Numbered from the stretch's first letter, positions 5,544 through 51,796 are shown. The stretch is 64,000 bases of DNA from Candidatus Hodarchaeota archaeon (GCA_048887225.1 JBHLJY010000007.1:51294-115293); one strand, 5' to 3'. Program-made: numbers and translations. The notes: generated by a model not told the origin, from the letters alone.

Positions 5544-5555
5544 GAACTAAAATGA

Positions 5556-34860: not shown

Positions 34861-35490
34861 ATGAAAAATAAGAACCAAATAAATCCTTATGATATTTGTA
34901 CGTGGCGTCCTATATCTGAGTGTAATAATTGCACGCTAAAAGGTTATCTAAAATGTCATTTTAAAAAAAAAAATTTGTTAAATTTTATAGGATTATTTCT
35001 ATTATTCGCCATACCCGCTTTTGCTGGAGTAATTATTGCAGATTATGGATGGTATCTTTTAGGATGGATTGCGTTTTGGATATTTTTTTTTGAGTTCTGG
35101 GAAATTCGAATCCTGTGCAGTCATTGCCCGTTTTATGCAGAAAAAGGAAGATTTATTCATTGTTTTGGTAATTACAAAAGTTTAAAAGTATGGAAATATC
35201 ACCCTGAACCCATCAGCCGTAGCGAGAAGATACAGCTTTTAATAGGATTTCTAATCTTTTTTGGATACCCGTACATCTTTATGATACTTGGGAAGCAATA
35301 TGTCTTTATAATACTTACTTCGATTGGGTTAATTATCTTTCTTGGAGTTTTAATTAAACGAAGATGTGCTAAATGTATTAATTTTTCTTGTATTTTTAAT
35401 CGAGTTCCCAAAGAAGTCGTTGATGAATTTCTCAATAAAAATCCGATAATGAAAGAAGCTTGGGAAAAAGCAGGTTATCGATTGAGTTGA
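34861..35490 (+). CDS. Cys-rich integral membrane protein
   Basis: 209 aa with about 4 TM segments. Cys clusters: CTW..C..C, CSHCPFY and CAKCINFSC. Confidence 0.5.
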   Translation: MKNKNQINPYDICTWRPISECNNCTLKGYLKCHFKKKNLLNFIGLFLLFAIPAFAGVIIADYGWYLLGWIAFWIFFFEFWEIRILCSHCPFYAEKGRFIHCFGNYKSLKVWKYHPEPISRSEKIQLLIGFLIFFGYPYIFMILGKQYVFIILTSIGLIIFLGVLIKRRCAKCINFSCIFNRVPKEVVDEFLNKNPIMKEAWEKAGYRLS

Positions 35491-35631
35491 TTGTCTAAAT
35501 ATTTCCCATATAATTTCATCAATTAAGAGGCTGTAAATTAGAATAAATTATCTCAGAAAATTAAATGTTTATATAAGATTAGGGGCAATTTTAATATATT
35601 AAGTCTTTAAATTACAAATGAGGTATATACA

Positions 35632-35895
35632 ATGGCGAGAGATTTTACAGTTGCAGATGTATTAGGAATAATAGCTATAATAGTAGCTATAATAGGATTA
35701 ATCTTTGAACCTTTAATACTAGGCGTTGTTGCTATAATCTTAGCGTTAATAGGATTGTATCTAGTTAGAGGTTCTGATAGAAAAAACATTTTTTGCATAA
35801 TAGGATTAATTCTCGGTATAATTTCTGTGATTTATGGCATAATTATACTTATTATGCGTTTAACGCATGTACCTCCAGGTCAAGCAAAAAAATAA
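35632..35895 (+). CDS. small two/three-TM membrane protein (DUF4190-like)
   Basis: 87 aa, Ile/Gly-rich repeated TM helices. Confidence 0.45.
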   Translation: MARDFTVADVLGIIAIIVAIIGLIFEPLILGVVAIILALIGLYLVRGSDRKNIFCIIGLILGIISVIYGIIILIMRLTHVPPGQAKK

Positions 35896-36035
35896 ATTCT
35901 TTTTTTTTTTCTTATTTTAAATCAAAATTATCATTAAAATATCTTAATTTTCCAATGGAAACCAACCAAGAAATCGAAGAGTTTTTAAATGAACTCGATC
36001 GAGAGAAAGTAAAGAAACAGAAATAAGATGTTGAA

Positions 36036-37220
36036 ATGATCGATAAAAAAAAAATTAAATCTTGTGCAGAGAATATAACAAAATGTGTCAATATTAAGGA
36101 AGGTGAATGTGTCTATATTAAGGGTGGTGTTTATTGCCAAGAACTTCTAGAAGAGGTTGCTTTAGAAGTTTTAAGAAAGGGAGGTCTTCCTCATATAAGT
36201 TCAACCACAGATTATTTTTCAGAAATGATTTATAGTGAAGAGCAGATAAAAATAGAGACATTGGAAAAGACTCCAATTCACATTCTAAAACTTATTGAAC
36301 ATCTCGATGTTTATATCGTTATTGAACCTTTCGAGGATCCTTCATTACGAAATAAATTTCCCAGAGACAAATTATTTGCATCATCAAAAGCATCAGCACC
36401 AATAAAGGATATTTTATATGGAAGTAAAAAGGAGTACGCTCCCGGAAAAAAATGGTGTTACGCAGGTTTTCCGTCTAAAAAAGCAGCAGAATTTTATAAT
36501 ATCAATTATGACTTATATGAAAAATTTATTGTTGATGGAATGAGTGTTCCTATTGAAGATTTAATGAAGATTACCAGAAATTTAGGAAAAAACTTTGAAA
36601 ATGCAAAAAATGTTCATATTAAAGATGAATTAGGAACTGATTGCTGGGTTTCAATTGAAAATCGCAGGATTAATTATGATGCGGGTATGTTAACGGATGA
36701 AATGATTGCTGTAGGAGATTTAGGTGGAAATCTGCCCGCGGGAGAAATCTTTATTGCTCCAAATGAAAATTTGGGCGAAGGTAAGCTTTTTTGTCCATTA
36801 ACGATTGATAGATATAGTAATAAGATCTTGAAAAATGTAGAATTATATTTTAAAGATGGAGTACTACAAGTTGATAAGGTTTTAGCTGATAATGATTTGA
36901 AAGATTTAATATCAAGCTTTAAAGAGTGTGAGGAAATTGATAAAACCAAAGATCTTGCTGAAATAAGAACATATAATGTAGCAGAGCTCGGAATTGGGTG
37001 TAATCCGAAGATAACTCAAGCAATTGGTTATATCCTAACCGATGAAAAAATTACAGGTAGCGTTCATATAGCCTTTGGATCAAATAAAATGTATGGTGGT
37101 ACATCCATATCTCAAATGCATTGGGATTTTGTAACAGCACCTAAAGCGAATATTACAATTGAATATAAAAATGGGGCAAAAAGAATTATAATGGAAGAGG
37201 GTAACTTAATCGAAGAGTAA
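36036..37220 (+). CDS. aminopeptidase, peptidase M29 (AmpS / aminopeptidase T) family
   Basis: 394 aa. Contains GGNLPAGEIFIAP, AELGIGCNP, GSVHIAFG, QMHWDF. Confidence 0.8.
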   Translation: MIDKKKIKSCAENITKCVNIKEGECVYIKGGVYCQELLEEVALEVLRKGGLPHISSTTDYFSEMIYSEEQIKIETLEKTPIHILKLIEHLDVYIVIEPFEDPSLRNKFPRDKLFASSKASAPIKDILYGSKKEYAPGKKWCYAGFPSKKAAEFYNINYDLYEKFIVDGMSVPIEDLMKITRNLGKNFENAKNVHIKDELGTDCWVSIENRRINYDAGMLTDEMIAVGDLGGNLPAGEIFIAPNENLGEGKLFCPLTIDRYSNKILKNVELYFKDGVLQVDKVLADNDLKDLISSFKECEEIDKTKDLAEIRTYNVAELGIGCNPKITQAIGYILTDEKITGSVHIAFGSNKMYGGTSISQMHWDFVTAPKANITIEYKNGAKRIIMEEGNLIEE

Positions 37221-37264
37221 ATTCATATTTCTTTATATTATTAATTAAAAAACTACTTTCCGTT

Positions 37265-37759
37265 TTATAAAGAGTAATTTTCCAAAAATTGTACAATTTC
37301 TTCTAGCACTAATTTTTTAAATGTTATTCTGTCTGCTTTAAAGTTATGTTTTTTAACCATTGTTTCTTTCATTGTTGAATAACTAATATACACTAAACCA
37401 ACAGGTTTTTCTGGACTCCCTCCTTTTGGGCCAGCAATGCCCGTAATTCCAATACCTATATCACATGGTTTCGACATTATTCTAACGTTATAAGCCATTT
37501 GTATTGCTACTTCTTCTGATACAGCACCATATTCTTCAATATATTTAGGATTTATTTTTAGGATATCAATTTTAGCTTGATTTCCATAAGAAACGATTCC
37601 TCTTTCAAAAGTTTTTGATGCTCCCGATATGCTTGTAAACATATGTGATACATACCCTCCAGTACAAGATTCAGCAATAGCAATCCAAATATTATTCTCA
37701 GAAAATTTATGGATAATTTTTTTAATTCTTTCATTAAGATCTTGGGACATTATTCTCAA
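37265..37759 (-). CDS. pncC: CinA C-terminal domain protein / nicotinamide-nucleotide amidohydrolase PncC
   Basis: 164 aa. Contains AESCTGG, ITGIAGPKGGSPEKPVGLVYI. Confidence 0.85.
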   Translation of the reverse strand: MRIMSQDLNERIKKIIHKFSENNIWIAIAESCTGGYVSHMFTSISGASKTFERGIVSYGNQAKIDILKINPKYIEEYGAVSEEVAIQMAYNVRIMSKPCDIGIGITGIAGPKGGSPEKPVGLVYISYSTMKETMVKKHNFKADRITFKKLVLEEIVQFLENYSL

Positions 37760-37897
37760 ATTAAATGTATAAACTTTTTTAATATCAATTTTTTATAAAA
37801 CTACAACTAATAAAAATTAATAAACACTAGAAATAACATAATTCTGAATTTAAAAATTAATAATTATAATCGGAAAAAAATTTAACAGAGTGATTGA

Positions 37898-38431
37898 ATG
37901 AGTCAAAATGAGAACGCATTTGTATTCAAAATAACTGTAATTGGAGATGGAGCTGTAGGAAAAACTTCTTTAATTAAGAAATACACCCAAGGTTCATTTC
38001 AAAAAGATTATATTAAAACTTTAGGAGCACAGTTTTCTAAATATGACGAGGAAATAGATGGCGATAATGTCAAATTATTTTTTTGGGATATTGCCGGTCA
38101 GGCGGAATTTATGTTTATGCGCCCTACTTTTTATAAAGGGTCAAAAGCAGCTATCATTGTATTTTCTCACGCCCCTGGAGAAGAAGAAAGTTATGAACAC
38201 GTTGTTCAGTGGCATGATGATATCAAAAATTTCTGTGGAGATTTACCTATAGTATTATTTGGAAATAAACTTGATTTAGTTAACGAGAAGAATTTAGATG
38301 ATAAAAAAGTACAAGATTTAATAAAAGACCGAAATTTCCTTGGATATTATAAAACTAGTGCAAAAACTGGTAGTGGAGTGTATAAAGCTTTTCAAGCAAT
38401 AATAAGGGAATTATATAATAAATATAAATAA
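37898..38431 (+). CDS. small GTPase, Rab-like
   Basis: G1 GDGAVGKTS, switch I TLGAQF, G3 WDIAGQ, G4 GNKLD, G5 TSAKTG. No C-terminal Cys prenylation motif. Confidence 0.9.
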   Translation: MSQNENAFVFKITVIGDGAVGKTSLIKKYTQGSFQKDYIKTLGAQFSKYDEEIDGDNVKLFFWDIAGQAEFMFMRPTFYKGSKAAIIVFSHAPGEEESYEHVVQWHDDIKNFCGDLPIVLFGNKLDLVNEKNLDDKKVQDLIKDRNFLGYYKTSAKTGSGVYKAFQAIIRELYNKYK

Positions 38432-38461
38432 AGGCGCCTAATACCTATTTTGACGATATAG

Positions 38462-38755
38462 ATGTATACTGACCAAGAATATCCTAAGATCCTATTTTTT
38501 TCATCTAATCATTGCGCACCTTGTAAACCTGTTGAAGAAATAATAAAAAGAATTAATATTTCAATGTTCGGAAAAAAATTATATATAGAAAAAATTGATA
38601 TTGAAGAGAGTGCAAACAGAAATGTCATACAAAAACACCGAATAACGACAATACCCACAATAATTATTGCAGACAGAAGACTCACCAAAAACATTCAAGA
38701 GGAAGAAATTATTGATGCTATTCTCTACGGCTTCATTTCGTCAGTTAAAATATGA
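38462..38755 (+). CDS. thioredoxin-fold protein (CAPC active site)
   Basis: 97 aa. CAPC lies after the first strand (FFSSNHCAPC), with a cis-Pro region TTIPTIII. Confidence 0.7.
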   Translation: MYTDQEYPKILFFSSNHCAPCKPVEEIIKRINISMFGKKLYIEKIDIEESANRNVIQKHRITTIPTIIIADRRLTKNIQEEEIIDAILYGFISSVKI

Positions 38756-38807
38756 ATAAAATCAAAAAAAGTAAAATGAATATTAAATATAAAATAATTT
38801 ACAAAAA

Positions 38808-39296
38808 GTGAAAAATATGGACCGCCAATTATTATCAAAAATATTGTCACAAATGAAAAAACATCTCAAAGAAAAGAAGGAAATAGGGGATATGAAAGTT
38901 GGAGCTTTACTAGCTTTGGGACACCAATTAGAAGCTATATTTTATTATTTAGGCCACGAATTAGGAACTATTCTAAGTGTTAAACGAGTTAAAGATGTAA
39001 AACATATTCCCGAAGCGTTAAAAAAAATAATTTCGGAATATAATATTGGAGATATTACAATTACGGAAAGTAAAGAAGAAATAGTTTCATTAAAATTGAA
39101 AGGGCACTCTTCTAGTAAAGATTTAATTGGAAAAGGTATAAAAGCAGAAGGAAATTTTTGTTCTTTTGAAGCAGGGATGCTAGCTGGGATTGTCGAACGA
39201 ATGAGTAATATCCACTGCTTTGCTCAAGAGTTAAATTGTAGTTTACAATCCGGAGAAGGTGCATGCGAATTCATGATAGTATTTCAGAAAGATTAA
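38808..39296 (+). CDS. V4R domain protein (Bet3/TRAPP-fold-related)
   Basis: 162 aa. The C-terminal GNFCSFEAGMLAGIVERMSNIHCFAQELNCSLQSGEGACEFMIVF fits the V4R Cys pattern (C.F.aG.l.G.....E..C...G...C.F). GTG start; an alternative ATG is at 38817. Confidence 0.65.
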   Translation: MKNMDRQLLSKILSQMKKHLKEKKEIGDMKVGALLALGHQLEAIFYYLGHELGTILSVKRVKDVKHIPEALKKIISEYNIGDITITESKEEIVSLKLKGHSSSKDLIGKGIKAEGNFCSFEAGMLAGIVERMSNIHCFAQELNCSLQSGEGACEFMIVFQKD

Positions 39297-39388
39297 TTAT
39301 TTTTAATCTCTCAAATATCATAAAATTATTAATAATCGCGCGAATATTATAACGATATATAGAAAGTAAATTATCTTATTGATCGAAA

Positions 39389-39919
39389 ATGACTGAAAGA
39401 AATTATGTTGTTAAAATTTGTTTGTTAGGGGAAGCAAATGTGGGAAAAACTTCATTGGTGTATAGATTTATTGAAAATAAATTCAGAGACAACTATAAAA
39501 GTACTCTGGGAGTTAATCTTTTAAAGAAAGATCTCGATATTGATAATTACACGGGAGTTTCGGCTCAAATATGGGATCTTGGAGGGCAAGAATCTTTTAA
39601 AAGTCTAAGGAAATTATATTTAGAGGGAGCCAATGGTGCTCTTATAGTTTACGATACAACAAAAAGAAAGACCTTTGATAGCCTCAGCGATTGGGTTCAA
39701 AGCTTTCGAGAATCAAGGGGAGATCAACCGTTATTATTAATAGGAAATAAAATTGATTTAAAAAATAAGATAAAAATCGACGAAAAAGAAGCTAAAGAAT
39801 ATGCGGAAAAAAATCAAATGGCGTTCCTTCTAACATCGGCAAAAACTGGTAATAACGTTGAAACAGCATTTAAAGAATTAATAAAGACTATCCTCGATAA
39901 AGCTATGTCGAATAAATAA
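39389..39919 (+). CDS. small GTPase, Rab-like
   Basis: G1 GEANVGKTS, switch I TLGVNL, G3 WDLGGQ, G4 GNKID, G5 TSAKTG. No prenylation Cys. Confidence 0.9.
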   Translation: MTERNYVVKICLLGEANVGKTSLVYRFIENKFRDNYKSTLGVNLLKKDLDIDNYTGVSAQIWDLGGQESFKSLRKLYLEGANGALIVYDTTKRKTFDSLSDWVQSFRESRGDQPLLLIGNKIDLKNKIKIDEKEAKEYAEKNQMAFLLTSAKTGNNVETAFKELIKTILDKAMSNK

Positions 39920-40130
39920 CTAGTAAATCATTTTATTTCATATTTCCATTTTTAACAAATAAAAAAAATATGTTTAAAAATACTCTTCAAATTTGATGTT
40001 TTAAGGTTTATTTATTTTTAAAACAATTCCTTTATAAAGGATACTTTACTTTATAAAAAATATAAAAAAAAAACCCATACTTTTTTCTTAATAAAACTCA
40101 ATTTATCAAATATCTGCTTTAGATGTAATA

Positions 40131-40781
40131 ATGTCAGAGGAAGAAGAAGAGGAAGAGGGCGAAGAAGAGGAAGAGAAGTATGATTATGAAACTGACTTAG
40201 ATTATAAAATAGAGAATGTTGTAGCAACTGTAAGCGTTGAGATTACTGAAAAGATCGACCTTAACCAAATTGCCCGAAAACATGCAGAAGTAGAATATAA
40301 TCCAGAGAGATTTCCAGGATTAGTGATGAGAATCGAAAAGCCACGTGCAACTATTCTTATTTTCTCTACTGGAAAAATGGTAGTTACCGGATTAAGAAGA
40401 GCAGCTGAGGCTCAAAGAGTTGTAGAAAAAGTAGTAAAAAATATTAGAAAAGCTGGAATTAAATTAGCTAATCCTGAAATTACAATTCAAAATATTGTCG
40501 CTTCTGGAGATCTTCATACAAACATTGACTTAAATATGGCAGCGATTGTTATGGAATATGCAATGTACGAGCCTGAAGTATTCCCTGGTTTAATTTATCG
40601 GATGCAAGATCCTAAAACAGTATTTTTAATTTTTAGTACTGGGCGCATTGTGTGCACAGGTGCTAAACAAAAAGAAATTGTTAGGGACGCCGTTTTAAAA
40701 TTAAACCAACAAGTCCGTGAACTGGGCGTTGCTAAAAAAGATATTGCCGAATCTGAATATCAAGATATAACTTTTATCTAA
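40131..40781 (+). CDS. tbp: TATA-box binding protein with acidic poly-Glu N-terminal extension
   Basis: Two TBP repeats (IENVVATVSV...FPGLVMR...IFSTGKMVVTG and IQNIVASGDL...FPGLIYR...IFSTGRIVCTG). These are preceded by MSEEEEEEEGEEEEEKYDYE. Confidence 0.95.
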   Translation: MSEEEEEEEGEEEEEKYDYETDLDYKIENVVATVSVEITEKIDLNQIARKHAEVEYNPERFPGLVMRIEKPRATILIFSTGKMVVTGLRRAAEAQRVVEKVVKNIRKAGIKLANPEITIQNIVASGDLHTNIDLNMAAIVMEYAMYEPEVFPGLIYRMQDPKTVFLIFSTGRIVCTGAKQKEIVRDAVLKLNQQVRELGVAKKDIAESEYQDITFI

Positions 40782-40815
40782 TTTTTTATTTTTTCCCCTT
40801 ATTTTTACAATATTT

Positions 40816-41097
40816 CTATAAAGAACCGCAAAATTTACGTTTAATAACATTTTGAAATTCTTTAAGAACCCTCTTATTGACTATTCCATCACCATTGTTA
40901 TTATAAAGAAGCACTATTTCTCCTGAACTTAAATCTTTAAATCCCGCAACTTCAAAATGATTATGACTATTAGCGCAAGAAATATATACCGAATCTTTTT
41001 GATTGTCGAAATTTAACTCTGAATCACATGTAGGACAATGATTTAGTTCAATTGATTGAATACTCCGCAATAATTTGTTCATTTCATCGCAGTACAT
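40816..41097 (-). CDS. hypothetical small Cys/His protein
   Basis: 93 aa. Contains HCPTC....C..H.H, a possible zinc site. No family recognised. Confidence 0.4.
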   Translation of the reverse strand: MYCDEMNKLLRSIQSIELNHCPTCDSELNFDNQKDSVYISCANSHNHFEVAGFKDLSSGEIVLLYNNNGDGIVNKRVLKEFQNVIKRKFCGSL

Positions 41098-41162
41098 AAC
41101 AGGAAAAATTACTAAATCGTTAAAGAAAGAAAGTATTATTTGAATAATACTAAATTCAAATT

Positions 41163-41435
41163 TTAAAAGGAATAGTCAAAGTTTTTAAATTTATTTTGAG
41201 GCTCTTTAATTTCGTAATCAACTTTATCAACATGTGCATATTTTGGACCTTTTTTAGAAAACTCAAGTAATTCAAGCAATTTTTCACGGGGTCCTTCTGC
41301 TTCAATATATACACTACCATCTGGCATATTTTTAACGTAACCAGTTAAACCTAATTTTCTAGCAACTTTTCGAGTCGTATAACGAAAAAAAACTCCTTGA
41401 ACTAGTCCATAAACGTTAATAATAATTCGCTTCAT
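41163..41435 (-). CDS. acyP: acylphosphatase
   Basis: 90 aa. Contains VYGLVQGVFFRYTTRKVARKLGLTGYVKNMPDGSVYIEAEG. Confidence 0.85.
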   Translation of the reverse strand: MKRIIINVYGLVQGVFFRYTTRKVARKLGLTGYVKNMPDGSVYIEAEGPREKLLELLEFSKKGPKYAHVDKVDYEIKEPQNKFKNFDYSF

Positions 41436-41460
41436 TTCAAATAATTAATTTCTTATTTAA

Positions 41461-42594
41461 TTATTTACTCACTAGCTTTTTCATAATATTAATATATTCA
41501 TCTAAATCTTCTTTTAATATTTCAGGATGAATATCCAGAGCAAAAACCTCCTCTGTTACTTTTTCTACGACTGGTAGATTAATCTTTGAATATTCAATAT
41601 CTTTTCCATAAAAGGGACAAGACCATGGACAACCCTTAGGATATGCTATTTTTTCTTGAAATAATTTAGTCTGATATAATGGAATGGGATATAGTACTTT
41701 GCTCTGAGGAAATTTTTCTATGAAATGTTGTTTGTTTAATCCAATTATATTAGGTTGAATTCTTCCAATCCAATAATTAAAGGCGGGTTCACAATATTCT
41801 GGAACATAAGGAGGATCAATTCCATTGATATCATTTACTTTATCTGTTAAATATTGTGCATTTTTATTTCGCGCCTTTACGTAATCATCTAACTTCCTTA
41901 ATTGAACTCTTCCGATTGCTCCTTGAATTTCAGTCATTCTATAATTCCAACCTAAACGATTATAAACATACCAAGAAGGTTCACCATGATGCCTGATTAA
42001 TCTACATAACTCAGCTAATTTGTCATTATTGGTGGTGATCATTCCCCCTTCTCCCGTAGTCATATTTTTAGAAGGATAAAAACTAAAAGCACTAAAATTT
42101 CCTAATGATCCTACTTTTTTGCCTTTATATTTTGCTCCATGTGCTTGACATGCATCTTCAATAATATACAAATTATTCTCTTTAGCAATTTCCAAAAGAG
42201 GGTCCATATCAGCTGTTAATCCAGCTAAATGTACAGGAATTATTGCCTTGGTTTTATTTGTTATCCGTTTACTTATTGAATCTGGATCTAAGGTATAGGT
42301 TTTGTTGTCTATATCAGCAAATATAGGAATTGCGTTATTTTGCAAAATTGAGCTTGCCGTAGCTATAAAAGTAAAAGGAGGAACAATTATTTCATCACCA
42401 GGTCCAATTCCCAATGCTGCAATAGCAATATGGAGGGCCGCAGTTCCAGAATTAACTCCAATAGCATGTTTTACACCAATATAATTTGCAAATTCTTTTT
42501 CAAAATTTTTTACGACATTTCCAGCTAATAAGGTTAGCATCTGAGATTCAATTACCTTAATAACTTCTTTTTTTTCTTCCTCAGTAAGATTCAT
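41461..42594 (-). CDS. DegT/DnrJ/EryC1/StrS family PLP-dependent sugar aminotransferase
   Basis: 377 aa. Contains NSGTAALHIA, DACQAHGA, and SFYPSKNMTTGEGG with the PLP Lys. Confidence 0.9.
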   Translation of the reverse strand: MNLTEEEKKEVIKVIESQMLTLLAGNVVKNFEKEFANYIGVKHAIGVNSGTAALHIAIAALGIGPGDEIIVPPFTFIATASSILQNNAIPIFADIDNKTYTLDPDSISKRITNKTKAIIPVHLAGLTADMDPLLEIAKENNLYIIEDACQAHGAKYKGKKVGSLGNFSAFSFYPSKNMTTGEGGMITTNNDKLAELCRLIRHHGEPSWYVYNRLGWNYRMTEIQGAIGRVQLRKLDDYVKARNKNAQYLTDKVNDINGIDPPYVPEYCEPAFNYWIGRIQPNIIGLNKQHFIEKFPQSKVLYPIPLYQTKLFQEKIAYPKGCPWSCPFYGKDIEYSKINLPVVEKVTEEVFALDIHPEILKEDLDEYINIMKKLVSK

Positions 42595-42706
42595 TTTAGC
42601 CTCTTAAATCTTTATTTTTTTAAGATTTGATTATAGCACATATAAATAAAAAAAAGAATAGCCATCTTAAGAATGTGCTTATTAAAAAATAGAAAGGAAA
42701 GGCTTT

Positions 42707-43285
42707 TTAGTATAATATAAAATATGTGTTATTTGTACTATTGTAAGCAACTATTTTATCTTTAAGAAGACTTTTTATAACGCTCTCTAACCAACGCTCA
42801 CTAGTTTTTACTTGTTTTTTAATATCGTTATAACTTAGTTGATCATTCGTAGCTAATAAGAATAAGATTCTGCTTTTAATAGTTAATTGGTTTGAACTTA
42901 GTACTCTATCAATTCTTTTTTCTAAATCATAGAGTCTCATCTTCAAATCTGCGACCTCATTACTTAATTTAGCAATGACCTCATCTCTAGTTCTAAAGAC
43001 ATTTAAACTGAATTTAAATCTCCTTTCTAATTGTTCCTTTAAATCCTCTTCATTTTCATATTTATCAAGATCTTTGTTGAATTCTTCAAGAACGATTAGA
43101 TAATCGTTGCCTTCATCAAATTTGTCTAATACAAGAACAATCACTATTTCTTTTTTGGAATTATAAAAGGAAACTGAATTCCATTCTTTCTCTTCCGTTA
43201 TGATATACGATTCCGTAAAATTATGAGAAATTTGAATTTGTTGTACTACGCTATCAGGAATATTGAGATCCCCTGGAAACTTCAA
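42707..43285 (-). CDS. hypothetical protein: longin/roadblock-like N-terminal half, coiled-coil, C-terminal winged-helix-like segment
   Basis: 192 aa from a TTG start. The frame is open about 20 codons further upstream (KIIPKGIFLIKWDEVIGGTIYL) without a canonical start. The C-terminal LSYNDIKKQVKTSERWLESVIKSLLKDKIVAY looks wHTH-like. Confidence 0.45.
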   Translation of the reverse strand: MKFPGDLNIPDSVVQQIQISHNFTESYIITEEKEWNSVSFYNSKKEIVIVLVLDKFDEGNDYLIVLEEFNKDLDKYENEEDLKEQLERRFKFSLNVFRTRDEVIAKLSNEVADLKMRLYDLEKRIDRVLSSNQLTIKSRILFLLATNDQLSYNDIKKQVKTSERWLESVIKSLLKDKIVAYNSTNNTYFILY

Positions 43286-43522
43286 ATAAATTGTTCCACC
43301 AATTACCTCATCCCACTTTATTAGGAAGATTCCTTTAGGTATTATCTTTCACCAATAAATTTAATATATAATTTTAAAAATAAACTTTTATGACTTAATA
43401 ATAATCGTATTGTATTTTCTTTATATTTTTATTTGAAATTTTTTAAGAAAAATAGTTCATTAAGTAAGATTATCTAAAAAAATATATATGACAAATTCGA
43501 TTTCTTAAATAGAGGATTCTTT

Positions 43523-43792
43523 ATGTCTGTTTATTACGTCTATATCTTAGAAACAGTAACTAATAACGGTAAAAAAGGCTATTATACTGGATATACTAAT
43601 GATTTATTTAGAAGATGGAATCAACATCGAAATGGGACTGGGGCTAAATATTGTCGAGGTAAAAAAAAAGTTGAATTAAAGTATTTTGAAACCTATACAA
43701 ATAGAAAAGAAGCTATGAGACGTGAATTAGAAATTAAGTCTTTTTCAAGGCAAAAGAAATCAGAATTAATTAAGAACTTCATTTATAGCTGA
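43523..43792 (+). CDS. GIY-YIG nuclease superfamily protein (UPF0213/SLX1-like catalytic domain only)
   Basis: 89 aa. Contains YYVYILE...GYYTGYTNDLFRRWNQHRNG...E. Confidence 0.8.
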   Translation: MSVYYVYILETVTNNGKKGYYTGYTNDLFRRWNQHRNGTGAKYCRGKKKVELKYFETYTNRKEAMRRELEIKSFSRQKKSELIKNFIYS

Positions 43793-43800
43793 TTTAATCG

Positions 43801-44601
43801 TTGGAAAAAGATAACTTTTTGATTTGTTTAGCTGGGTTACCAGCATCGGGTAAATCTAATTTTGCTAATAAGTTGAGAGAATTATTAGAGAAAAGATTTA
43901 ATAATTTGAAGGTAAAAATTATAGATCCAGATAAGATTAGGGAGAATATAGTTCCAGGTGAATTTGATTATAATAAAGAACAAATAGTTCGAAACAAAAA
44001 CTTAGAATCTGTAAAAAAGGAACTGGATTCAGGTTTCATCGTTATTAACGATGATTTAAATTATTACACCAGTATGAGACACGATTTGAAAGAAATTGCT
44101 GAAAATTTGGGTCTGAAATATTTCATAATTCATATATCGACACCACTTGAAATTTGCATAAAATGGAATGAAGAGAGAGGTAAACCAATTCCAAACAGCG
44201 TGATTCTTAATATAAGTCAAAAATTTGACGAATTTGGTAAATATAATTGGGATATTCCTATAGCAAATTACGATCTCTCTAAATTGAAAGATTTAAATCA
44301 ATCAATTGAAAAATTGATTAATACCTTTATTCAAAACTTAAAACTCTTGAAAATTAGAACAGAAAAAAAAGAAATTGTTCAGCAAAGTTTAAGTCTGGAT
44401 AATGAAAAATTAGATAGAATAACGAGAAAGATAGTTGGAGATTTATTAAGAACTCCTAAATATCGCTCTTTAAAGAATAAAATTATAAAATATCGAAAAA
44501 TGTATGTGAAAAAGAGAGCAAATACAGTTTTAAGTGAATCTGATATTATAAAAACTTTTAAGCAATATTTAGAGAAGAGTTTAAACATTAAAATTTCCTA
44601 A
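43801..44601 (+). CDS. pstK: L-seryl-tRNA(Sec) kinase (PSTK) / KTI12 family P-loop kinase
   Basis: 266 aa, TTG start 8 nt after the GIY-YIG stop. Contains Walker A GLPASGKSN and VINDDLNYYTSMRHDL. The basic C-terminal domain (LDRITRKIVGDLL..KYRKMYVKKR) is collinear with archaeal PSTK as I recall it. Confidence 0.6.
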   Translation: MEKDNFLICLAGLPASGKSNFANKLRELLEKRFNNLKVKIIDPDKIRENIVPGEFDYNKEQIVRNKNLESVKKELDSGFIVINDDLNYYTSMRHDLKEIAENLGLKYFIIHISTPLEICIKWNEERGKPIPNSVILNISQKFDEFGKYNWDIPIANYDLSKLKDLNQSIEKLINTFIQNLKLLKIRTEKKEIVQQSLSLDNEKLDRITRKIVGDLLRTPKYRSLKNKIIKYRKMYVKKRANTVLSESDIIKTFKQYLEKSLNIKIS

Positions 44602-44722
44602 GAATTCTTTGAGTAGAATGTTATTAAAAATAAAGAAAAAGAAAATAAACCATTAATTCCTTTAAATACTTGGATTAAAATATTTTATATATTAGTACAT
44701 CAAATTTCAATCAAAATCGAAA

Positions 44723-46999
44723 ATGACACAAGAAAAAAAGGCAATAAAATTAAGAATAGAAAGATTAGAAAAAAATCGTAGCGGGCGCAGTTTATGTTAT
44801 GTGGACCAAGATGCTATCAACCAGTTAGGTTTATCTACAGGTGATATAATTGAAATTAGAGGTAAAAAAAAGACCACAGGAATAGTTGTGGCCAGTGTAG
44901 CTGATAAAGGTAAAGGTATTATTAGGATAGATGGGATTCAAAGGCTAAACGCAGGTGCCACTATCGGAGAGTATGTTACCATACAATTAGCAGAAGTTTT
45001 TGCTGCAGAAGAGATCGTTTTGACTCCCACGAGACCAAATATTGATATGAAAAGACAAGCTGAAGCAATAAAGGGTAAATTGATTGATAAACCTGTGGTA
45101 ATCGGAGATATTGTTGATGTATTAGGAGCATTCGTGCAAAGGGATGATCCTGATAATCCTATGGCCGAAATCATGAAAATGTTTCCTTTTTTCAAAGGTG
45201 GAGGAAGGCGTCCTACATTAGGAACTTTAAGGCTTATTGTAGAAAATACTAGACCTTCGGGTAAAGTAGTTCGAATTACGCGTAATAGCAAAATAAAAGT
45301 AAACAAACGGGTTGCTGTATTAAATGTCTCAGGAGAAATTGTAACCTACGATGATGTAGGGGGTTTAAGTGATGAAATTCAGAGGATAAGAGAGATGGTC
45401 GAATTGCCTTTAAAGCATCCAGAACTTTTTCACAGGCTAAATATTGATCCTCCTAAGGGAGTTCTTTTCTATGGACCATCTGGAACGGGAAAAACTTTAT
45501 TAGCTAAAGCTGTATCTCAAGAATCAAACGCTTATTTCATAACCATCAACGGTCCAGAAATTATGAGTAAATTTTATGGGGCAAGCGAAGGGAGACTTCG
45601 AGATATTTTTACAGAAGCTGAAGATAATGCTCCATCAATAATTTTTATAGATGAAATTGATTCTATCGCGCCAAAAAGACAAGATGTCACTGGAGAAGTT
45701 GAAAGGCGTGTTGTTTCTCAGCTGCTTTCTTTACTGGATGGACTAAGAGCGAGAGGAGAAGTAATTTGCGTTGGAGCTACTAATAGAATAAATTCACTTG
45801 ATCAAGCATTAAGACGACCAGGTAGATTTGACCGTGAAATTGAATTTGGGGTACCTAATGTGAAAGGTAGAAAAGAGATATTTCAAATCCACACTAGGGG
45901 TATGCCTATTGAGCCAGATGTAGACCTTGACCATTATTCAGAAATAACTCATGGTTTTGTAGGCGCTGATATTATGGCAATAAGTAGAGAAGCAGCTATG
46001 CTTTCATTAAGAAGGATTTTGCCTAAAATAAATTTAGATGAGCCCATACCTAGTGAAATAATTCAAGAATTAAAAATTAAAGACGAAGATTTTGTGCAAG
46101 CTATCAATATGATAGAGCCATCAGCAATGCGGGAAGTTATGATTGAGATCCCTAACGTGCTTTGGGAAGATATTGGGGGGTTAACGGAGATAAAACAGGA
46201 GTTGAAAGAAGCTGTTGAATGGCCATTAATGTATCCAAAATTATTCAAGAAAGCGGGGATACGCCCTCTCAATGGAATATTATTATTTGGTCCACCAGGG
46301 TGCGGAAAAACATTATTAGCAAAAGCAGTTGCAACAGAAACTAAATCTAATTTTATTACTGTAAAAGGACCTGAAATTTTTTCTAAATGGGTAGGAGAAA
46401 GCGAAAGATCTGTAAGAGAAATCTTTAGAAAAGCTCGACAGGCAGCACCTTCTATAGTTTATTTCGATGAAATTGATGCAATTAGTTCTGATAGAGGTGA
46501 ATATCAAGGAACACATATTTATGATTCGATAGTCAATCAAATTCTTGTTGAAATGGATGGTATCGAAAATAGAAAAGGGATTGTGGTTATAGCAAGTACG
46601 AATAGACCTGATTTAGTAGATCCAGCGTTATTAAGGCCGGGAAGGTTTGATAGATTATTATTTGTGACTGCACCTGATTATGATGCAAGGATTAAAATCT
46701 TAAAAGTTCATACTAAAAATATGCCATTAACTAAAGATATTTCCTTGAAAAAAATTGCTCAAATTACTGAGGGTTATAGCGGAGCCGATTTAGAAAATTT
46801 ATGCCGTGAGGCGGGGATGAATGCTATTAGAGAAAAAATGACAGATTTAGAAAAAATCGAATGGAAACATTTTGAAAAAGCAATGGAAAAAATTAAATCG
46901 ACATTATCTAAAGAAGTTGTTGAAAGGCACGAACAGTTGGCTAAACAAATAACTGAATCTCGTAATATAAGAGATACATCCGCAGATCTTTATAAATAA
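44723..46999 (+). CDS. cdc48: CDC48/VCP-like AAA+ ATPase (two AAA domains plus N domain)
   Basis: 758 aa. N-terminal double-psi barrel region. D1 has [16 protein letters not shown] and D2 has [16 protein letters not shown]. Both have the SRH RPGRFDR. Confidence 0.95.
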
Positions 47000-47143
47000 A
47001 TTGAATTTAAATTATGTATTAATAATAATTCTTCATTTTTTTAACACTTTTGAAGGTTTATTTTAAAATCTTCACCATAGAAAATGTTTATATAAAACAT
47101 CATCAAAGTTAGAGTAATTAAAAAAATTTTAGAGTTACTTTCT

Positions 47144-48343
47144 GTGAGTGAAGTAAAGATTGATTGGGAAGGTCACGTAAAAAAATATCAAGCCGCTATG
47201 GAAGAACTTAACCTTGATTTCTGCGTTTTGACTCGTATTAAATCCATTACTTACCTTTCTGGTTGTTTCGTTCCATGGAAAAGTGTAATTTTCCTACCCA
47301 AGGAGGGGGTGGGTGAGCCAATATTATTCACTGTACTTTTAGATGTAGAACGAATCAAGGCCGAGGGGAAGATTGAAACCCAGGGCTGGGGGCCAATGAA
47401 AGGTTTTTATTGGGAGAAAAAAATACAATCTGCTGCCAAAAAATCCGGTCTATTCAAACCAAAAGGAACTCCACCTCGAATTGGTGTTGAACTCGGGTTA
47501 GATATTTGTGTTACGGGACAAATGCTTTCTTATTCAGAGGCAGAACTTCTTAGAAAAGTATTCCCTGGATGTGAATTGATTGATTTTAACGATAAAACAG
47601 AGCGGATTCAATTAATTAAAGAACCTGAAGAAATAGCTATGCTACGTAAAGCAAGTGAAATAACAGATATAGGTCAAAAGGCCGTGAAAAAAGCTTTGAG
47701 TGAACGACCATCTGGGAAAGTTTTCACAGAAAATGAAATTGCTGGTATTGGTACATTAGCGATGAGGAAAGCTGGAAGTAATTACGAATGGACTTTCACT
47801 GGAAATCAAGAGATTGGATCAGGATATAGAGCAAGTTGGACATTTAATGGATGTACACCTGCTACAAATAAGCAAGTTAAAGAAGGTGAGTCATTATTAG
47901 TAGACTTACACAGTGAAATTGGCTGCTATCTCGGTGATCTTAGTCATAATTATGTTCTTGGAAAGTGTCATCCTGGATTAAAGACCTTTAACAATATATA
48001 CGAACAATTATGTTATACTCTCATAGATAATATGGTTGTTGGTAATACTTTTGAGGAATGTTATAATGAAGTGCGAAAAGTGGCCGATAAAGCAGGATTT
48101 GGGAATGATTTATTTTTCGGGCTAGGGCATGGAATAGGTTGTATAGGAAACGAATCATGGCCAGTTGTAGTACCTGGGAAAGAATGGGGACCCATGGTGT
48201 TTGAAGAGAATATGGTAGAAATTGCTGCAGTCGTTTTTAATAAACCAGGGCTAGGAGGATTGAGGTTAGAATCACCAACATTTTTAACGAATAAGGGTGC
48301 TGAAGTCCTCCCGAAGACGCCATTTGAAGTAGATTACATATAA
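47144..48343 (+). CDS. peptidase M24 family (Xaa-Pro dipeptidase/creatinase-like)
   Basis: 399 aa, GTG start. Creatinase-like N domain and pita-bread C domain with LVDLHSEIGCYLGDLS, GLGHGIG, and EENMVE. Confidence 0.8.
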   Translation: MSEVKIDWEGHVKKYQAAMEELNLDFCVLTRIKSITYLSGCFVPWKSVIFLPKEGVGEPILFTVLLDVERIKAEGKIETQGWGPMKGFYWEKKIQSAAKKSGLFKPKGTPPRIGVELGLDICVTGQMLSYSEAELLRKVFPGCELIDFNDKTERIQLIKEPEEIAMLRKASEITDIGQKAVKKALSERPSGKVFTENEIAGIGTLAMRKAGSNYEWTFTGNQEIGSGYRASWTFNGCTPATNKQVKEGESLLVDLHSEIGCYLGDLSHNYVLGKCHPGLKTFNNIYEQLCYTLIDNMVVGNTFEECYNEVRKVADKAGFGNDLFFGLGHGIGCIGNESWPVVVPGKEWGPMVFEENMVEIAAVVFNKPGLGGLRLESPTFLTNKGAEVLPKTPFEVDYI

Positions 48344-48361
48344 ATTTCTTTTTTATATTAA

Positions 48362-49525: not shown

Positions 49526-49605
49526 TGACTTAATTATTTTTAAATAATTTTGTCTTTAAAGAATAAATATATAAAAAGAGTTATTAGTCAAATTACAAAA
49601 TTTAA

Positions 49606-50154
49606 CTAAGCCTTTTTACCCAATTTGTTTAAAATATTATGGACCAGATTTTCAAAAGCCTTTTCTACATTCTCGCCATATTTTGCGGAAGTTTCTATGA
49701 AATCACTCGCATTAATTTCGCTCCCAAAACTACTACCCTCCTCTGTTGACACTACTCGCTGTTCCGATAAATCAGTCTTGTTTCCAATTAAAATATAAGT
49801 CCCTTCTTTTTTAACATATTTATTGAAATCCCGCAACCATTTAGAATTAATTGTCTCAAAAGTAGCACGTCTAGTTATGTCATAAACTAATAACGCTCCA
49901 ACGCATCCTTGGAAATACATTGAGCGAATTACATTATATTTTTCTTGTCCAGCAAGGTCCCACATTATAAGGCGAACATTAGCATTAATTTTTTCCAAAT
50001 GCATATCCTTTCTAATTATGTTCGCCCCAAGCGTAGGTTTATAATCTTCCTGAAACGAATGTTCTATATACTGGTTAATTAGAGATGTTTTACCTACAGC
50101 TGCATCTCCCAAAACCACTATTTTGAACACGAATTCTTTAACTTCTTCCGACAT
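49606..50154 (-). CDS. small GTPase, Rab-like
   Basis: G1 GDAAVGKTS, switch I TLGANI, G3 WDLAGQ, G4 GNKTD, G5 TSAKYG. Close paralogue of 50809..51345. Confidence 0.9.
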   Translation of the reverse strand: MSEEVKEFVFKIVVLGDAAVGKTSLINQYIEHSFQEDYKPTLGANIIRKDMHLEKINANVRLIMWDLAGQEKYNVIRSMYFQGCVGALLVYDITRRATFETINSKWLRDFNKYVKKEGTYILIGNKTDLSEQRVVSTEEGSSFGSEINASDFIETSAKYGENVEKAFENLVHNILNKLGKKA

Positions 50155-50202
50155 TTTTAATATCTCTATCCTTGTAATTATTATATTTTTTTTATTCTTT
50201 AT

Positions 50203-50709
50203 TTATTTTTTCCATATTAATTTCAAAATATATGGTTTATGAGTAAGATCTGGTATCTTTTCATCTTCATTTGTATAAATAACTCTTCTATTGTCTGGTA
50301 TCGCTTTTTTTAAAGAAGTGACGAGAAAACCAGTGAATAAATTGCATGGAACTCCAACCTCACTGCAAAAAATACAATTTTGAATTTCAACTGTAACAGA
50401 ATTTTTTCCTTGATCTATTATTCGAACGGCCCAATTTGTTTTAATTAATACGTTAATTTCTTGAATTATTTCTTCAAAAGGTTTTCCCCAGGGAAAAAGA
50501 TAAAAAGCAAATTTTTTACCGACTTCATATTGAAGTCTGTAACATCCGTATAACAATAATTCTTGAGCTTTGATGATTTTCTTAAAAGATAAAAAATCTA
50601 TCGTATCGTTTGGATCTACATTTTTGTTATCTTTTATCTTTAACATATCAGCTTCTCTTAACACAGATTTCATTCCATCGTAATCAAGAATATCTAAATA
50701 AGCTTGCAA
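50203..50709 (-). CDS. V4R-like domain protein (partial motif), function unknown
   Basis: 168 aa, TTG start. IQNCIFCSEVGVPCNLFTGFLVTSL matches the first half of the V4R Cys motif (C..C.....PC....G.l). The terminal E..C...G..C.F block was not seen. Confidence 0.45.
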   Translation of the reverse strand: MQAYLDILDYDGMKSVLREADMLKIKDNKNVDPNDTIDFLSFKKIIKAQELLLYGCYRLQYEVGKKFAFYLFPWGKPFEEIIQEINVLIKTNWAVRIIDQGKNSVTVEIQNCIFCSEVGVPCNLFTGFLVTSLKKAIPDNRRVIYTNEDEKIPDLTHKPYILKLIWKK

Positions 50710-50808
50710 TAGAGCCGTAACAACCTTGTTTTTTACTTCCTCTTTATATTCGCCTACTATTAAAGTTCACCAATTATTAATATTGCAATCAACAAAATTT
50801 AATCCCAT

Positions 50809-51345
50809 TTAAATTTTCACTCCATAATTACTTAAAATGTTATAGGCTAAATTTAAAAACGCTTTTTCAACGTTTTTTCCAGTTTTGGCACTTGTTTCTA
50901 TGAATTCAATTGCTTTAATTCGCTCCGCCATGTTATGAGCATCATCTTTAAAAACATATCTTTGCTCTTCTAAATCGGCTTTGTTTCCAATTAAAATATA
51001 TGATCCCTCTTTTTCGACATGGTTTTTATAATCTGTAAGCCACTTATACTCAACATTTTCAAAGGAAGAATATCTAGTAATATCGTAAACTAATAACGCT
51101 CCTGCGCATCCTTCATAATATGCACCCCTAGTTTTTTCATATTGTTCTTGTCCAGCAATATCCCAGAGAATTAAACGAGCATTGGAATTAATTTGCTCTA
51201 ATTTGATGGTTTTCATGATTAAATTCACGCCCATAGTTGCTTTGTAATCTTCTTTAAACCTTTCCTCTACAAATTGGTTTACTAATGATGTTTTCCCAAC
51301 TCCAGTGTCTCCTAATACTGCAAGTTTTAATACGTAGTCTGACAT
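50809..51345 (-). CDS. small GTPase, Rab-like
   Basis: G1 GDTGVGKTS, switch I TMGVNL, G3 WDIAGQ, G4 GNKAD, G5 TSAKTG. Confidence 0.9.
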   Translation of the reverse strand: MSDYVLKLAVLGDTGVGKTSLVNQFVEERFKEDYKATMGVNLIMKTIKLEQINSNARLILWDIAGQEQYEKTRGAYYEGCAGALLVYDITRYSSFENVEYKWLTDYKNHVEKEGSYILIGNKADLEEQRYVFKDDAHNMAERIKAIEFIETSAKTGKNVEKAFLNLAYNILSNYGVKI

Positions 51346-51367
51346 TTTATCTTCCTTTTTTCTTTAT

Positions 51368-51796
51368 TTAAAGATCTAAAAGAGATAATCCAAATTGTGG
51401 ATCAACAGCACGATTTAATTTTTGACCAATTTCATAAATATAAACTTCTCCAGTAATGGAAACGATTGATGGTGTACTTAAATGACCCCCAATAATATTA
51501 TAATCCTCTCTACCAACTGATACATGGATATGTATTATTGGTTCTCCATCCTTATAAGAAATATTTCCCATGCAAGAAATTAATTCAACATTTTCTTCAA
51601 AAGTTTTAAAATTATATTTTTTTTCCTTAATATTAAAATATCCGATTGTGAATTTTTTAAAAGCTCCAATAACGTTGATTAATCCGGCTTTAATATTATA
51701 TTTTTTAACAATTTCTTTTATAGCATCAATTAAATCCTCATCAGCCATTACTCTCGCAACAATAACCCTACCGATATTTGTTTCGATACTTTTCAT
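51368..51796 (-). CDS. PPC / DUF296 domain protein
   Basis: 142 aa. Contains IGRVIVARV..DEDLIDAI, AGLINVIGAF, and ELISCMGNISYKDGEPIIHIHVSVG, typical of DUF296 (COG1661). Confidence 0.7.
   Translation of the reverse strand: MKSIETNIGRVIVARVMADEDLIDAIKEIVKKYNIKAGLINVIGAFKKFTIGYFNIKEKKYNFKTFEENVELISCMGNISYKDGEPIIHIHVSVGREDYNIIGGHLSTPSIVSITGEVYIYEIGQKLNRAVDPQFGLSLLDL

Follow-up and report, generated by a model that had tools for sequence, protein, structure and literature searches.

In Asgard archaea the Rab-like, Arf-like and Rag-like GTPases number in the dozens, Lokiarchaeal genomes holding on the order of a hundred small GTPases, and to our knowledge almost nothing is known about their regulators. 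Can such a regulator be recognised from the genes that stand beside a GTPase? The question is raised by a stretch of 64,000 nt (~30% G+C) from a Candidatus Hodarchaeota archaeon (GCA_048887225.1 JBHLJY010000007.1:51294-115293), which we refer to as the window. Its positions 37898-39919 hold cassette A: a Rab-like GTPase (GA1), a small thioredoxin (Trx), a stand-alone V4R protein (V4R-A) and a second Rab-like GTPase (GA2). An initial annotation, made from the sequence alone, had proposed that the V4R protein, by analogy with the Bet3 family of TRAPP subunits, may be a dedicated regulator of both flanking GTPases, possibly with a redox input through the thioredoxin. Here we show that GA1, Trx and V4R-A, in that order, form an unbroken co-directional unit throughout the Loki-type Asgard archaea, independent of the flanking synteny. 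As judged from its genomic context this triad is very probably a functional operon, and it is probably a redox-gated or ligand-gated GTPase switch, not a TRAPP complex.

As first described, all four open reading frames lie on the plus strand, with spacers of 30, 52 and 92 nt (Table 1). Because all homologues of V4R-A are 159 aa long, its start was corrected from the GTG at 38808 to the ATG at 38817, and the second spacer thereby becomes 61 nt. A scan of species-representative genomes yielded 80 loci, nearly all in Loki-type metagenome-assembled genomes, which we call the window clade. The cassette A arrangement recurs in at least 88 independent genomes and contigs, and that of a second cassette of the window, cassette B (taken up below), in about 80; the recurrence of both is far beyond chance, and the gene order is conserved far beyond this genome. 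In the 80-locus scan, GA1, Trx and V4R-A were contiguous and co-directional in every locus uncut by a contig end. The junctions inside the triad were never broken (GA1|Trx intact in 77/77 loci, Trx|V4R-A in 79/79), while every flanking junction was: CinA|GA1 was intact in 40/71, M29|CinA in 46/63, V4R-A|GA2 in 41/71 and TBP|AcyP in 33/55, TBP being the TATA-binding protein.

A second, divergent clade was reached through the GA1-like sequence of MK-D1, reconstructed from the supplement of Tran et al.; a search with it gave GA1 orthologues of 184-189 aa. The order GTPase, Trx, V4R is present in 8/8 of these divergent loci (L165, L166, L167, L168, L170, L171, L172 and L173), including L171, whose triad has an evident frameshift and an in-frame stop, and L173, whose Trx was called from a late Met. 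Identity to the window proteins is 54-59% for the GTPase, about 49-56% for Trx and 43-52% for V4R, compared with 34-44% for the KTI12-like neighbour that served as a yardstick. The CinA, M29, TBP and AcyP neighbours of the window are kept in 0/8 of the divergent loci; the upstream flanks vary from locus to locus, and several loci share a downstream winged helix-turn-helix (HTH) gene, TatD, GIY-YIG and KTI12. Altogether the triad occurs in at least 85 genomes and contigs spanning these two deeply diverged Loki-type clades, among them a contig labelled Helarchaeota and relatives of MK-D1. P0312 (L169, 52% identity) was set aside as a different GTPase paralogue with no Trx or V4R beside it; in L169 a gene (4234-7017, minus strand) for a 927-aa Ras + SIR2_2 + TPR protein adjoins a GA1-like paralogue of this kind.

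Gene order within the window clade is weak evidence taken alone, because unrelated neighbours are kept nearly as often: the CinA gene was retained in 71/74 loci, the M29 peptidase gene in 62/70 and the TBP gene in 68/69. With unrelated neighbours kept in 86-99% of window-clade loci, raw conservation of gene order was dropped as proof of function, and the operon was judged instead by junction breakage, by T-tracts and by the contexts of the divergent clade. Tracts of five or more T (T5+) are an archaeal termination signal. Between GA1 and Trx 3% of the spacers contain such a tract, and between Trx and V4R-A 6%; the tracts are rare upstream of GA1 (9% of orthologous loci within 100 nt), and 62/80 loci (78%) have one no more than 100 nt past V4R-A, the median distance from the stop codon being 16 nt. 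The GA1-Trx spacer measures only 2-4 nt in 38/77 loci, and in the purine-rich spacer between Trx and V4R-A a GGAG/GAGG-like motif stands ahead of the V4R-A start. Evolutionary rates co-vary among GA1, Trx, V4R-A and GA2 (r = 0.78-0.89) and less between the cassette proteins and four of five syntenic control genes (r = 0.44-0.72), a comparison that is confounded by shared phylogeny and suggestive only, one non-cassette gene scoring equally. Spacers in the divergent clade are longer (6-409 nt) and some contain T-tracts, and strict co-transcription is therefore not universal.

Both GTPases proved to be complete, with the catalytic Gln and without a prenylation Cys, as had been noted from their motifs. 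GA1 and GA2 score 144.8 and 167.8 bits against Pfam Ras (PF00071), and the four GTPases of the two cassettes 144.8-175 against a cut-off of 21.6. The G1, G3, G4 and G5 motifs read GDGAVGKT, WDIAGQ, NKLD and TSAK in GA1, and GEANVGKT, WDLGGQ, NKID and TSAK in GA2; they are conserved across 70-77 orthologues, WDIAGQ being invariant in GA1. A Cys is found in the last six residues of 0/77 GA1 and 0/70 GA2 orthologues, so that the C-terminal mark of eukaryotic Rab prenylation is missing. Surkont and Pereira-Leal had already reported in 2016 that prenylation Cys and canonical Rab regulators are missing, in work that included no gene-context analysis (PMC4915359). The best solved relatives of GA1 are Rab23, Rab1B, Rab9A and Ran (E = 1e-33 to 1e-26), and those of GA2 are Rab11, the Thorarchaeota Rab 7ezb and Ypt31/32 (E about 1e-37). 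Switch I (YIKTLGAQFS) and switch II (LFFWDIAGQxEFxFMRPTFY) of GA1 are near-fully conserved, the marked columns being at least 95% identical, in both clades, and they are unlike those of the paralogues GA2, GB1 and GB2, the last two from cassette B. The window also carries a fifth Ras-family GTPase (29852-30376, minus strand), in which Glu replaces the catalytic Gln (WDFGGEE); it stands alone between acyl-CoA synthetase and arginyl-tRNA synthetase genes and has no V4R-like neighbour.

The CAPC protein encoded between the first GTPase and the V4R gene passes the Pfam cut-offs for a thioredoxin fold (PF13098 Thioredoxin_2, 29.1 against 27 bits; PF00085 Thioredoxin, 28.3 against 23.5 bits), and its PDB matches are thioredoxins. 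Both Cys of its CxxC are 100% conserved in 77 orthologues, and the [IV]P[T] loop is present in the window sequence and in the divergent clade.

V4R-A itself stands at the edge of the family models. It scores below the Pfam cut-offs for V4R (PF02830, 20.5 against 31 bits) and DUF2507 (31 against 35 bits), and most of its orthologues carry precomputed PF02830 and/or PF10702 matches. Its best sequence-level family match is the V4R half of NCBIfam MsvR (E = 4e-9), covering profile positions 92-236 of 236 at 36.5 bits against a cut-off of 220. Pfam TRAPP_Bet3 (PF04051) gave no match to V4R-A at E <= 0.1, and none of the cassette proteins matched a longin or roadblock family in Pfam or NCBIfam. Profile searches thus gave strong Ras matches, but put V4R below its cut-off and returned nothing for TRAPP_Bet3. 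With the confident AlphaFold2 model of V4R-A (mean predicted local distance difference test score, pLDDT, 85; predicted template modelling score, pTM, 0.86), Foldseek placed the V4R protein MJ1460 first (2oso/2osd; E = 1e-6; 25% identity), followed by YslB/DUF2507, many TRAPPC3/Bet3 chains, PoxR/MopR/DmpR and H-NOX; the TRAPPC3 chains 2j3t_A, 6aq3_D, 7e8t_C and 7u06_F aligned with template modelling (TM) scores of 0.61-0.66 at a probability of 1.00, and a profile search with V4R-A also reached 2osd (E = 0.005). The V4R/Bet3 fold of the central protein is thus borne out, by the predicted model together with the MsvR match.

Thirty-six V4R-A residues are invariant over both clades, and the motifs GALxALGxQLxAxxYxxGHELG (in the N-terminal helix pair), FCSFEAG and HCFAQE are kept in both. 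The family is narrow, with 7 matches at E <= 1e-30 in an exhaustive profile search of 1.84 billion representative proteins, and no extra paralogue of V4R-A or of family B, the central protein of cassette B, was found in the window or in 1.3 Mb of retrieved loci. Distant V4R relatives include the Trx-V4R-V4R fusions P0405 (480 aa) and P0387 (513 aa), whose N-terminal Trx domains have CAYC or CVHC and which each occur in 8-9 independent assemblies labelled Lokiarchaeota, Hodarchaeota or Asgard group. These fusions are, at the level of sequence, Rosetta-stone evidence that Trx and V4R domains probably work together in Asgard archaea. Another apparent fusion, of DJ-1/PfpI with V4R (P0370), is a singleton on an 883-nt contig and was disregarded as a probable chimera.

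The V4R Cys motif noted at the outset is present as C115, C134, C141 and C150, numbered from the ATG at 38817, and all four are retained apart from rare exceptions. The model places them at the start of helix 116-130 and in strands 134-140 and 150-156, the same elements that are joined in Thor-TRAPPC3, where a Zn-Cys4 site tethers the sheet to helix D (Tran et al., PMC10933270). Their gaps of 19/7/9 residues compare with 19/7/8 for C206/C225/C232/C240 of MaMsvR, a correspondence of spacing alone and not of residue-by-residue alignment. The MsvR cysteines govern redox-dependent DNA binding, C206A making the binding redox-insensitive (PMC3729527), and H2O2 oxidises the thiols of MsvR, which the thioredoxin system returns to the reduced state (PMC7278568). 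Residues 96-102 of V4R-A (39102-39122) read G-H-S-S-x-K-D invariantly in the window clade, and most divergent-clade V4R proteins have a CxxC there instead (e.g. ECNSCKD), which gives them six Cys; the V4R domain of MthMsvR likewise has an extra CxxC-type motif (PMC3729527).

Taken together, these features make a thiol-gated GTPase switch module the most likely, if tentative, reading of the triad. V4R-A would sense the redox state, possibly via its Zn-Cys4 or a disulfide-forming site, or a hydrophobic ligand in its pocket; the co-expressed thioredoxin would reduce or reset this site; and the state of V4R-A would be passed to GA1 by protein-protein contact, either by changing the nucleotide state of the GTPase or with V4R-A acting as its effector. 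Contact with GA1 is proposed because V4R-A has no DNA-binding domain. GA2, a winged-helix protein encoded at 42707-43342 and the RAM protein of the divergent clade would be looser partners that may carry the output, perhaps towards transcription. The parts of this scheme differ in strength. The redox input via the thioredoxin, already suspected in the initial annotation, is the best supported, given the invariant CxxC, the MsvR-like Cys4 spacing and the Trx-V4R fusions, and the cassette Trx rather likely acts on V4R-A. That V4R-A directly regulates or binds GA1 is possible; coupling to the GTPase is suggested by the constraint on the GA1 switches, the rate covariation and the GTPase link of cassette B (63/65 loci). 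By analogy, the closest mechanistic counterpart of the triad appears to be MsvR with thioredoxin: the two share the V4R sensor domain, the Cys spacing and the thioredoxin link, and both are likely to be dimeric small sensors. In contrast to V4R-A, which lacks an HTH, MsvR is a transcription factor with an N-terminal HTH; it is restricted to methanogens, and V4R-A, which falls far under the NCBIfam MsvR cut-off, shares its locus with a dedicated Trx and a Rab-like GTPase. What counts against a thiol gate is that some divergent family members lack part of the Cys set (P0366 is without C141 and C150, L167 without C134), and that the four Cys could, like those of Thor-TRAPPC3 and PoxR, bind Zn for structural reasons only.

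Several other explanations have to be weighed against this thiol-gated switch. Could GA1 be a co-expressed bystander that makes no contact with V4R-A? Trx and V4R-A would then be a 'split MsvR' without the DNA-binding domain, with an output via other partners, such as the winged-helix or RAM-domain proteins that recur nearby. MsvR provides the precedent, an HTH+V4R architecture (P0401) exists among the distant relatives of V4R-A, and Trx-V4R fusions occur, but no GTPase-V4R fusion was seen among 50 representative matches or 120 close homologues. Even so, the GTPase is the most tightly apposed gene, as the 2-4 nt spacers indicate; none of 85 loci has a triad that lost GA1; its switch regions are under family-specific constraint; and cassette B pairs a protein of H-NOX-like fold with a GTPase and has no Trx. 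On balance we regard a redox pair with an uninvolved GTPase as unlikely, though worth keeping in mind.

Less probable still is that V4R-A is a sensor or carrier of ligands or lipids, its cavity holding a hydrophobic molecule whose loading GA1 controls or is controlled by, with the four Cys as structural Zn ligands and Trx merely protecting the Zn-thiolate site. An invariant CxxC Trx that is fused to V4R elsewhere in Asgard archaea better fits thiol redox chemistry. What speaks for a ligand is the likeness of the fold to the ligand-binding domains of PoxR, MopR and DmpR and to palmitoylated TRAPPC3, PoxR binding phenols and Bet3 binding palmitate; some sources also label the proteins 'predicted hydrocarbon binding protein', and Asgard TRAPPC3/V4R proteins probably bind ligands (Tran et al., PMC10933270).

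The analogy with TRAPP on which the regulator proposal had been built fared worse. If V4R-A were a Bet3-type guanine-nucleotide exchange factor (GEF), or another dedicated regulator, of both GTPases, cassette A would be a minimal TRAPP-Rab ancestor. The homology of V4R and Bet3 is established (PMC2253512), the V4R-A model superposes on TRAPPC3/Bet3, including chains from the TRAPP-Ypt1 and TRAPP-Ypt32 complexes (TM up to 0.65), and Bet3 forms part of the Rab interface, where its C-terminus wedges into switch I (PMC10152722). In addition, the closest solved relatives of GA2, Rab11 and Ypt31/32, are TRAPPII substrates, and a GA2 orthologue stays near the triad in both clades. However, most of the catalytic site of TRAPP comes from its longin subunits, C1 and C4, and a minimal GEF needs four subunit types (PMC10152722); no longin gene was recognised in the operon. 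The nearest structures and families of V4R-A are the archaeal V4R sensors MJ1460 (25% identity) and MsvR, TRAPP_Bet3 is not matched, and the obligatory thioredoxin is left unexplained. Nor does the pairing with two GTPases hold, since the operon links V4R-A to GA1 only, GA2 being inverted in 25/71 loci, absent from the sampled flanks of 5/8 divergent loci and apparently not co-transcribed. We therefore consider a TRAPP-like GEF very doubtful. Compared with the TRAPP core as such, the triad shares the fold (TM 0.6-0.65 to TRAPPC3 chains), the V4R-Bet3 homology and the association of a Bet3-fold protein with Rab-like GTPases; it differs in that V4R-A has no sequence-level Bet3 membership and no recognised longin subunits in its operon, keeps a Cys4 site that eukaryotic TRAPPC3 has lost, comes with an obligatory thioredoxin and stands beside GTPases without prenylation tails.

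A further, evolutionary reading, itself improbable, would have the triad as a surviving archaeal precursor of the Rab-TRAPP relationship, in which a Bet3-fold protein binds the switches of a dedicated GTPase and sets its nucleotide state, gated by the redox state of a Zn-Cys4 that Trx resets. If this were true, the contact between the Bet3 fold and a Rab-like GTPase would be older than eukaryogenesis and would have served at first to signal redox state or a ligand, not membrane traffic; and if the N-terminal domain of the neighbouring winged-helix protein proved longin-like, a second TRAPP-type fold would be supplied. That the three genes form no functional unit at all, their adjacency being synteny inherited among close genomes rich in GTPase paralogues, is in keeping with the retention of CinA, M29 peptidase, TBP and AcyP genes in 86-99% of window-clade loci, but is extremely improbable in view of the unbroken internal junctions, the 8/8 divergent loci that keep the triad without the other neighbours of the window, the operon-like T-tract pattern and the Trx-V4R fusions.

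How does the triad relate to what has been described before? Tran et al. 2024 solved Thor-TRAPPC3 (7yh3) and modelled the MK-D1 proteins WP_147663132.1 and WP_147661794.1 (PMC10933270). These Asgard TRAPPC3/V4R-like proteins resemble V4R-A in being small and in having the same fold and a Zn-Cys4, 7yh3 ranking 38 among the Foldseek matches of V4R-A. According to the same authors, the GTPase genes of MK-D1 do not as a rule share operons with genes for TRAPPC3-like proteins, which made matching difficult, and genome layout was said not to help match Asgard GTPases with regulators (PMC10933270). In contrast, the V4R-A family does sit in a unit with a GTPase gene, and the triad thus supplies a match of this kind. 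In their alignment the GA1-like WP_147663613 and the GA2-like WP_147663611 of MK-D1 have accessions two apart; because these lie far from the accessions of the two analysed proteins, V4R-A is probably a third family beyond them. L166, with the order GA2 - FAD-oxidoreductase - GA1 - Trx - V4R - RAM, is 88% identical to the MK-D1 GTPase sequences, and from this and the accession numbering we infer that the triad is probably also present, so far overlooked, in the cultured MK-D1 lineage. Besides Tran et al. 2024, full-text literature searches found no paper linking V4R with small GTPases.

The MglA-MglB and Asgard Rag-roadblock operons likewise place a Ras-superfamily GTPase beside a small dimeric partner that is its presumed regulator. 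They differ from the cassettes described here in the fold of the partner, which is V4R/Bet3 or H-NOX-like and not roadblock/longin, and in the thioredoxin gene interposed in the triad. MglA, moreover, is not known to use a catalytic Gln, which GA1 keeps. The triad is thus a variant of two known themes, GTPase/regulator operons and Trx-controlled V4R sensors. It ties an Asgard GTPase to a specific candidate regulator in a form that is open to experiment, and its three small soluble proteins (177, 97 and 159 aa) should express easily. With them, two questions can be put to the test in vitro: did the Bet3/V4R fold already partner Rab-like GTPases before there were eukaryotes, and are Asgard GTPase switches sensitive to redox state? 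Two protein families that had not been characterised are defined here as well, that of V4R-A, which is narrow, and family B with its H-NOX-like fold.

Table 1. Features of cassettes A and B and of their surroundings. Positions are those of the window, except for the RAM-domain genes, which are numbered on their own divergent-clade loci.
Feature	Position	Strand	Description
Intergenic region	37760..37897	+	presumed triad promoter region, by position only; divergent CinA gene on other side
GA1, small GTPase	37898..38431	+	Rab-like, 177 aa, first triad gene; Pfam Ras E = 2e-42
Trx, small thioredoxin	38462..38755	+	97 aa, CAPC, T-I-P-T cis-Pro loop, second triad gene
V4R-A	38817..39296	+	stand-alone V4R/Bet3-fold protein, 159 aa, C115/C134/C141/C150, third triad gene
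T-rich tract TTATTTTT	39297..39304	+	directly 3' of V4R-A stop; presumed triad transcript end
GA2, small GTPase	39389..39919	+	Rab11/Ypt31-like, 176 aa, neighbour outside triad operon; Pfam Ras E = 2e-49
TATA-binding protein (TBP) gene	40131..40781	+	block with GA2; Pfam TBP E = 2e-58
Uncharacterised protein	42707..43342	-	~211 aa; N-terminal alpha/beta domain, coiled coil, winged-helix-like C-terminus
GB2, Rab-like GTPase	49606..50154	-	tight downstream partner of family B; Pfam Ras E = 1e-51
Family B	50203..50760	-	unannotated, about 185 aa, H-NOX-like fold, CxxCxExxxxC
GB1, Rab-like GTPase	50809..51345	-	variable upstream member; Pfam Ras E = 2e-51
PCC (DUF296) domain protein	51368..51796	-	upstream member; Pfam PCC E = 2e-33
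RAM-domain gene, L165	6223-6483		
RAM-domain gene, L166	5880-6128		
RAM-domain gene, L167	5483-5755		
RAM-domain gene, L168	1929-2192		
RAM-domain gene, L170	6116-6373		
RAM-domain gene, L172	8222-8479		
RAM-domain gene, L173	5874-6122	-	

GA2 appears from its context to be a separately transcribed neighbour that lies outside the triad operon. In 70 loci of the 80-locus scan it lies close to the triad, 46 times in the same direction and 24 times inverted, and the count of V4R-A|GA2 junctions (71 loci) gave 25 inversions and 5 insertions. TBP always comes next after GA2, in the same orientation; the V4R-A|GA2 and GA2|TBP junctions switch orientation in the same 25 loci, and the inverted-GA2 loci inspected have the inverted TBP gene between V4R-A and GA2. 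Because TBP inverts along with GA2, the conserved blocks are [GA1-Trx-V4R-A] and [GA2->TBP]; and because a T5+ tract follows GA2 in 98% of loci, GA2 and TBP are probably separate transcripts. In the divergent clade a GA2 orthologue (51-56% identical) lies upstream of GA1 in 3/8 loci (L166, L171 and L173), and none was found in the sampled flanks, of a few kb, of the other five.

Cassette B (49606-51796) bears on the observation, made in the initial annotation, that the same GTPase-V4R-GTPase order recurs at 49606..51345. The arrangement is real and lies on the minus strand, but its central protein, family B, belongs to another family. No similarity in sequence between family B and V4R-A could be detected (BLASTP E = 0.72; hhalign probability 0.4%), and sequence searches with family B gave no Pfam, NCBIfam or PDB match, nor a match to Pfam HNOB. 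With its AlphaFold2 model (pLDDT 85.8), Foldseek returned H-NOX first (1u4h, 3tf0 and 3iqb; E = 3.5e-7, TM 0.62-0.65, about 195 columns), then YslB and then TRAPPC3. As far as these predicted models go, the two cassettes appear alike at the level of a broad fold group, not of the family. Like H-NOX operons, cassette B sets a protein that matches H-NOX over its full length (TM about 0.63) beside a signalling-protein gene. It differs from them in that family B lacks the invariant His, has CxxCxExxxxC instead and belongs to no Pfam family, and in that its partner is a Rab-like GTPase and not a kinase or cyclase. No His was found among the invariant or near-invariant columns of 39 orthologues, and no haem-binding motif.

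The context of family B was followed in about 80 metagenome loci and 4 genome loci. The gene right after family B is a GB2 orthologue in 63/65 loci, also where other genes have taken over the upstream side (24/70), and a GTPase stands directly upstream in 33/70 only; GB1 and GB2 are 56% identical. The PCC gene lies upstream of family B in most loci, some genomes placing a third GTPase before it. T-tracts occur in 0-10% of the spacers before family B, in 39% of those before GB2 and in 77% of those after GB2. An aminotransferase gene always follows GB2, with the T-tract between them in 77% of loci. Each central protein thus keeps a single close GTPase partner in the gene order, which precedes V4R-A (GA1) and follows family B (GB2), and the GTPase 'sandwich' is not the conserved feature. 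Cassette B is an analogous module of a different family, PCC-(GB1)-H-NOX-like protein-GB2.

Among the looser neighbours of the triad, the winged-helix-like protein downstream of TBP is retained in 56/62 window-clade loci, and its rates co-vary with the four cassette proteins at r = 0.84-0.88, equal to theirs with each other. In 4/8 divergent loci an orthologue of about 30-32% identity is encoded downstream, on the other strand. Its C-terminus has weak matches to the HTH domains of Lrp/AsnC, MarR, TrmB and HlyU. The strand/helix pattern of its N-terminus looks longin- or roadblock-like by eye; profile searches assigned this domain to no family. As a candidate, this protein could either belong to the module or be its output. 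In 7/8 loci of the divergent clade V4R is followed by a stand-alone AsnC_trans_reg (RAM) gene encoding about 85 aa, of which no homologue was found in the window or in the 80 window-clade loci. The sharing of genes in rearranged positions suggests a functionally linked neighbourhood with a transcription-regulatory flavour. A gene for an FAD/NAD-binding oxidoreductase of about 440-455 aa adjoins the GA2 and GA1 genes in L166 (2203-3567, plus strand) and L173 (1520-2827, minus strand). A GDI/REP-like identity was considered for it and rejected, the matches being generic FAD/NAD-binding ones with no GDI match; it could be a redox partner or unrelated.

An Rfam search of 35000-53000 found no RNA elements. 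The PADLOC defence models gave just two marginal matches (E = 0.005 and 0.009) and none for the GTPases, and the reading of the region as a defence island was dropped for want of support from them. The submitters' taxon labels of several loci (L019, L001, L020, L026 and others) are inconsistent, naming Thorarchaeota, Odinarchaeota, Hodarchaeota, Hermodarchaeota and even a 'Nanopelagicaceae bacterium'. The cassette proteins of these contigs are about 73-97% identical to those of the window, TBP having a median of 94% over all loci, and the contigs are probably mis-binned or mis-assigned Loki-type ones.

Finally, two genes on the minus strand, that of family B and that of the winged-helix-like protein, seem to start with ATA codons (50758-50760 and 43340-43342) where orthologues have ATG. 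Each ATA lies 6-7 nt past a GGTGA Shine-Dalgarno-like motif and just after an in-frame stop, and that of family B is conserved in 8 related contigs (including L085, L087-L091 and L094). A similar ATT start candidate is found at 21921. Together these cases suggest that AUA and AUU may serve for initiation in this lineage; genes with ATA starts are truncated by open-reading-frame callers.

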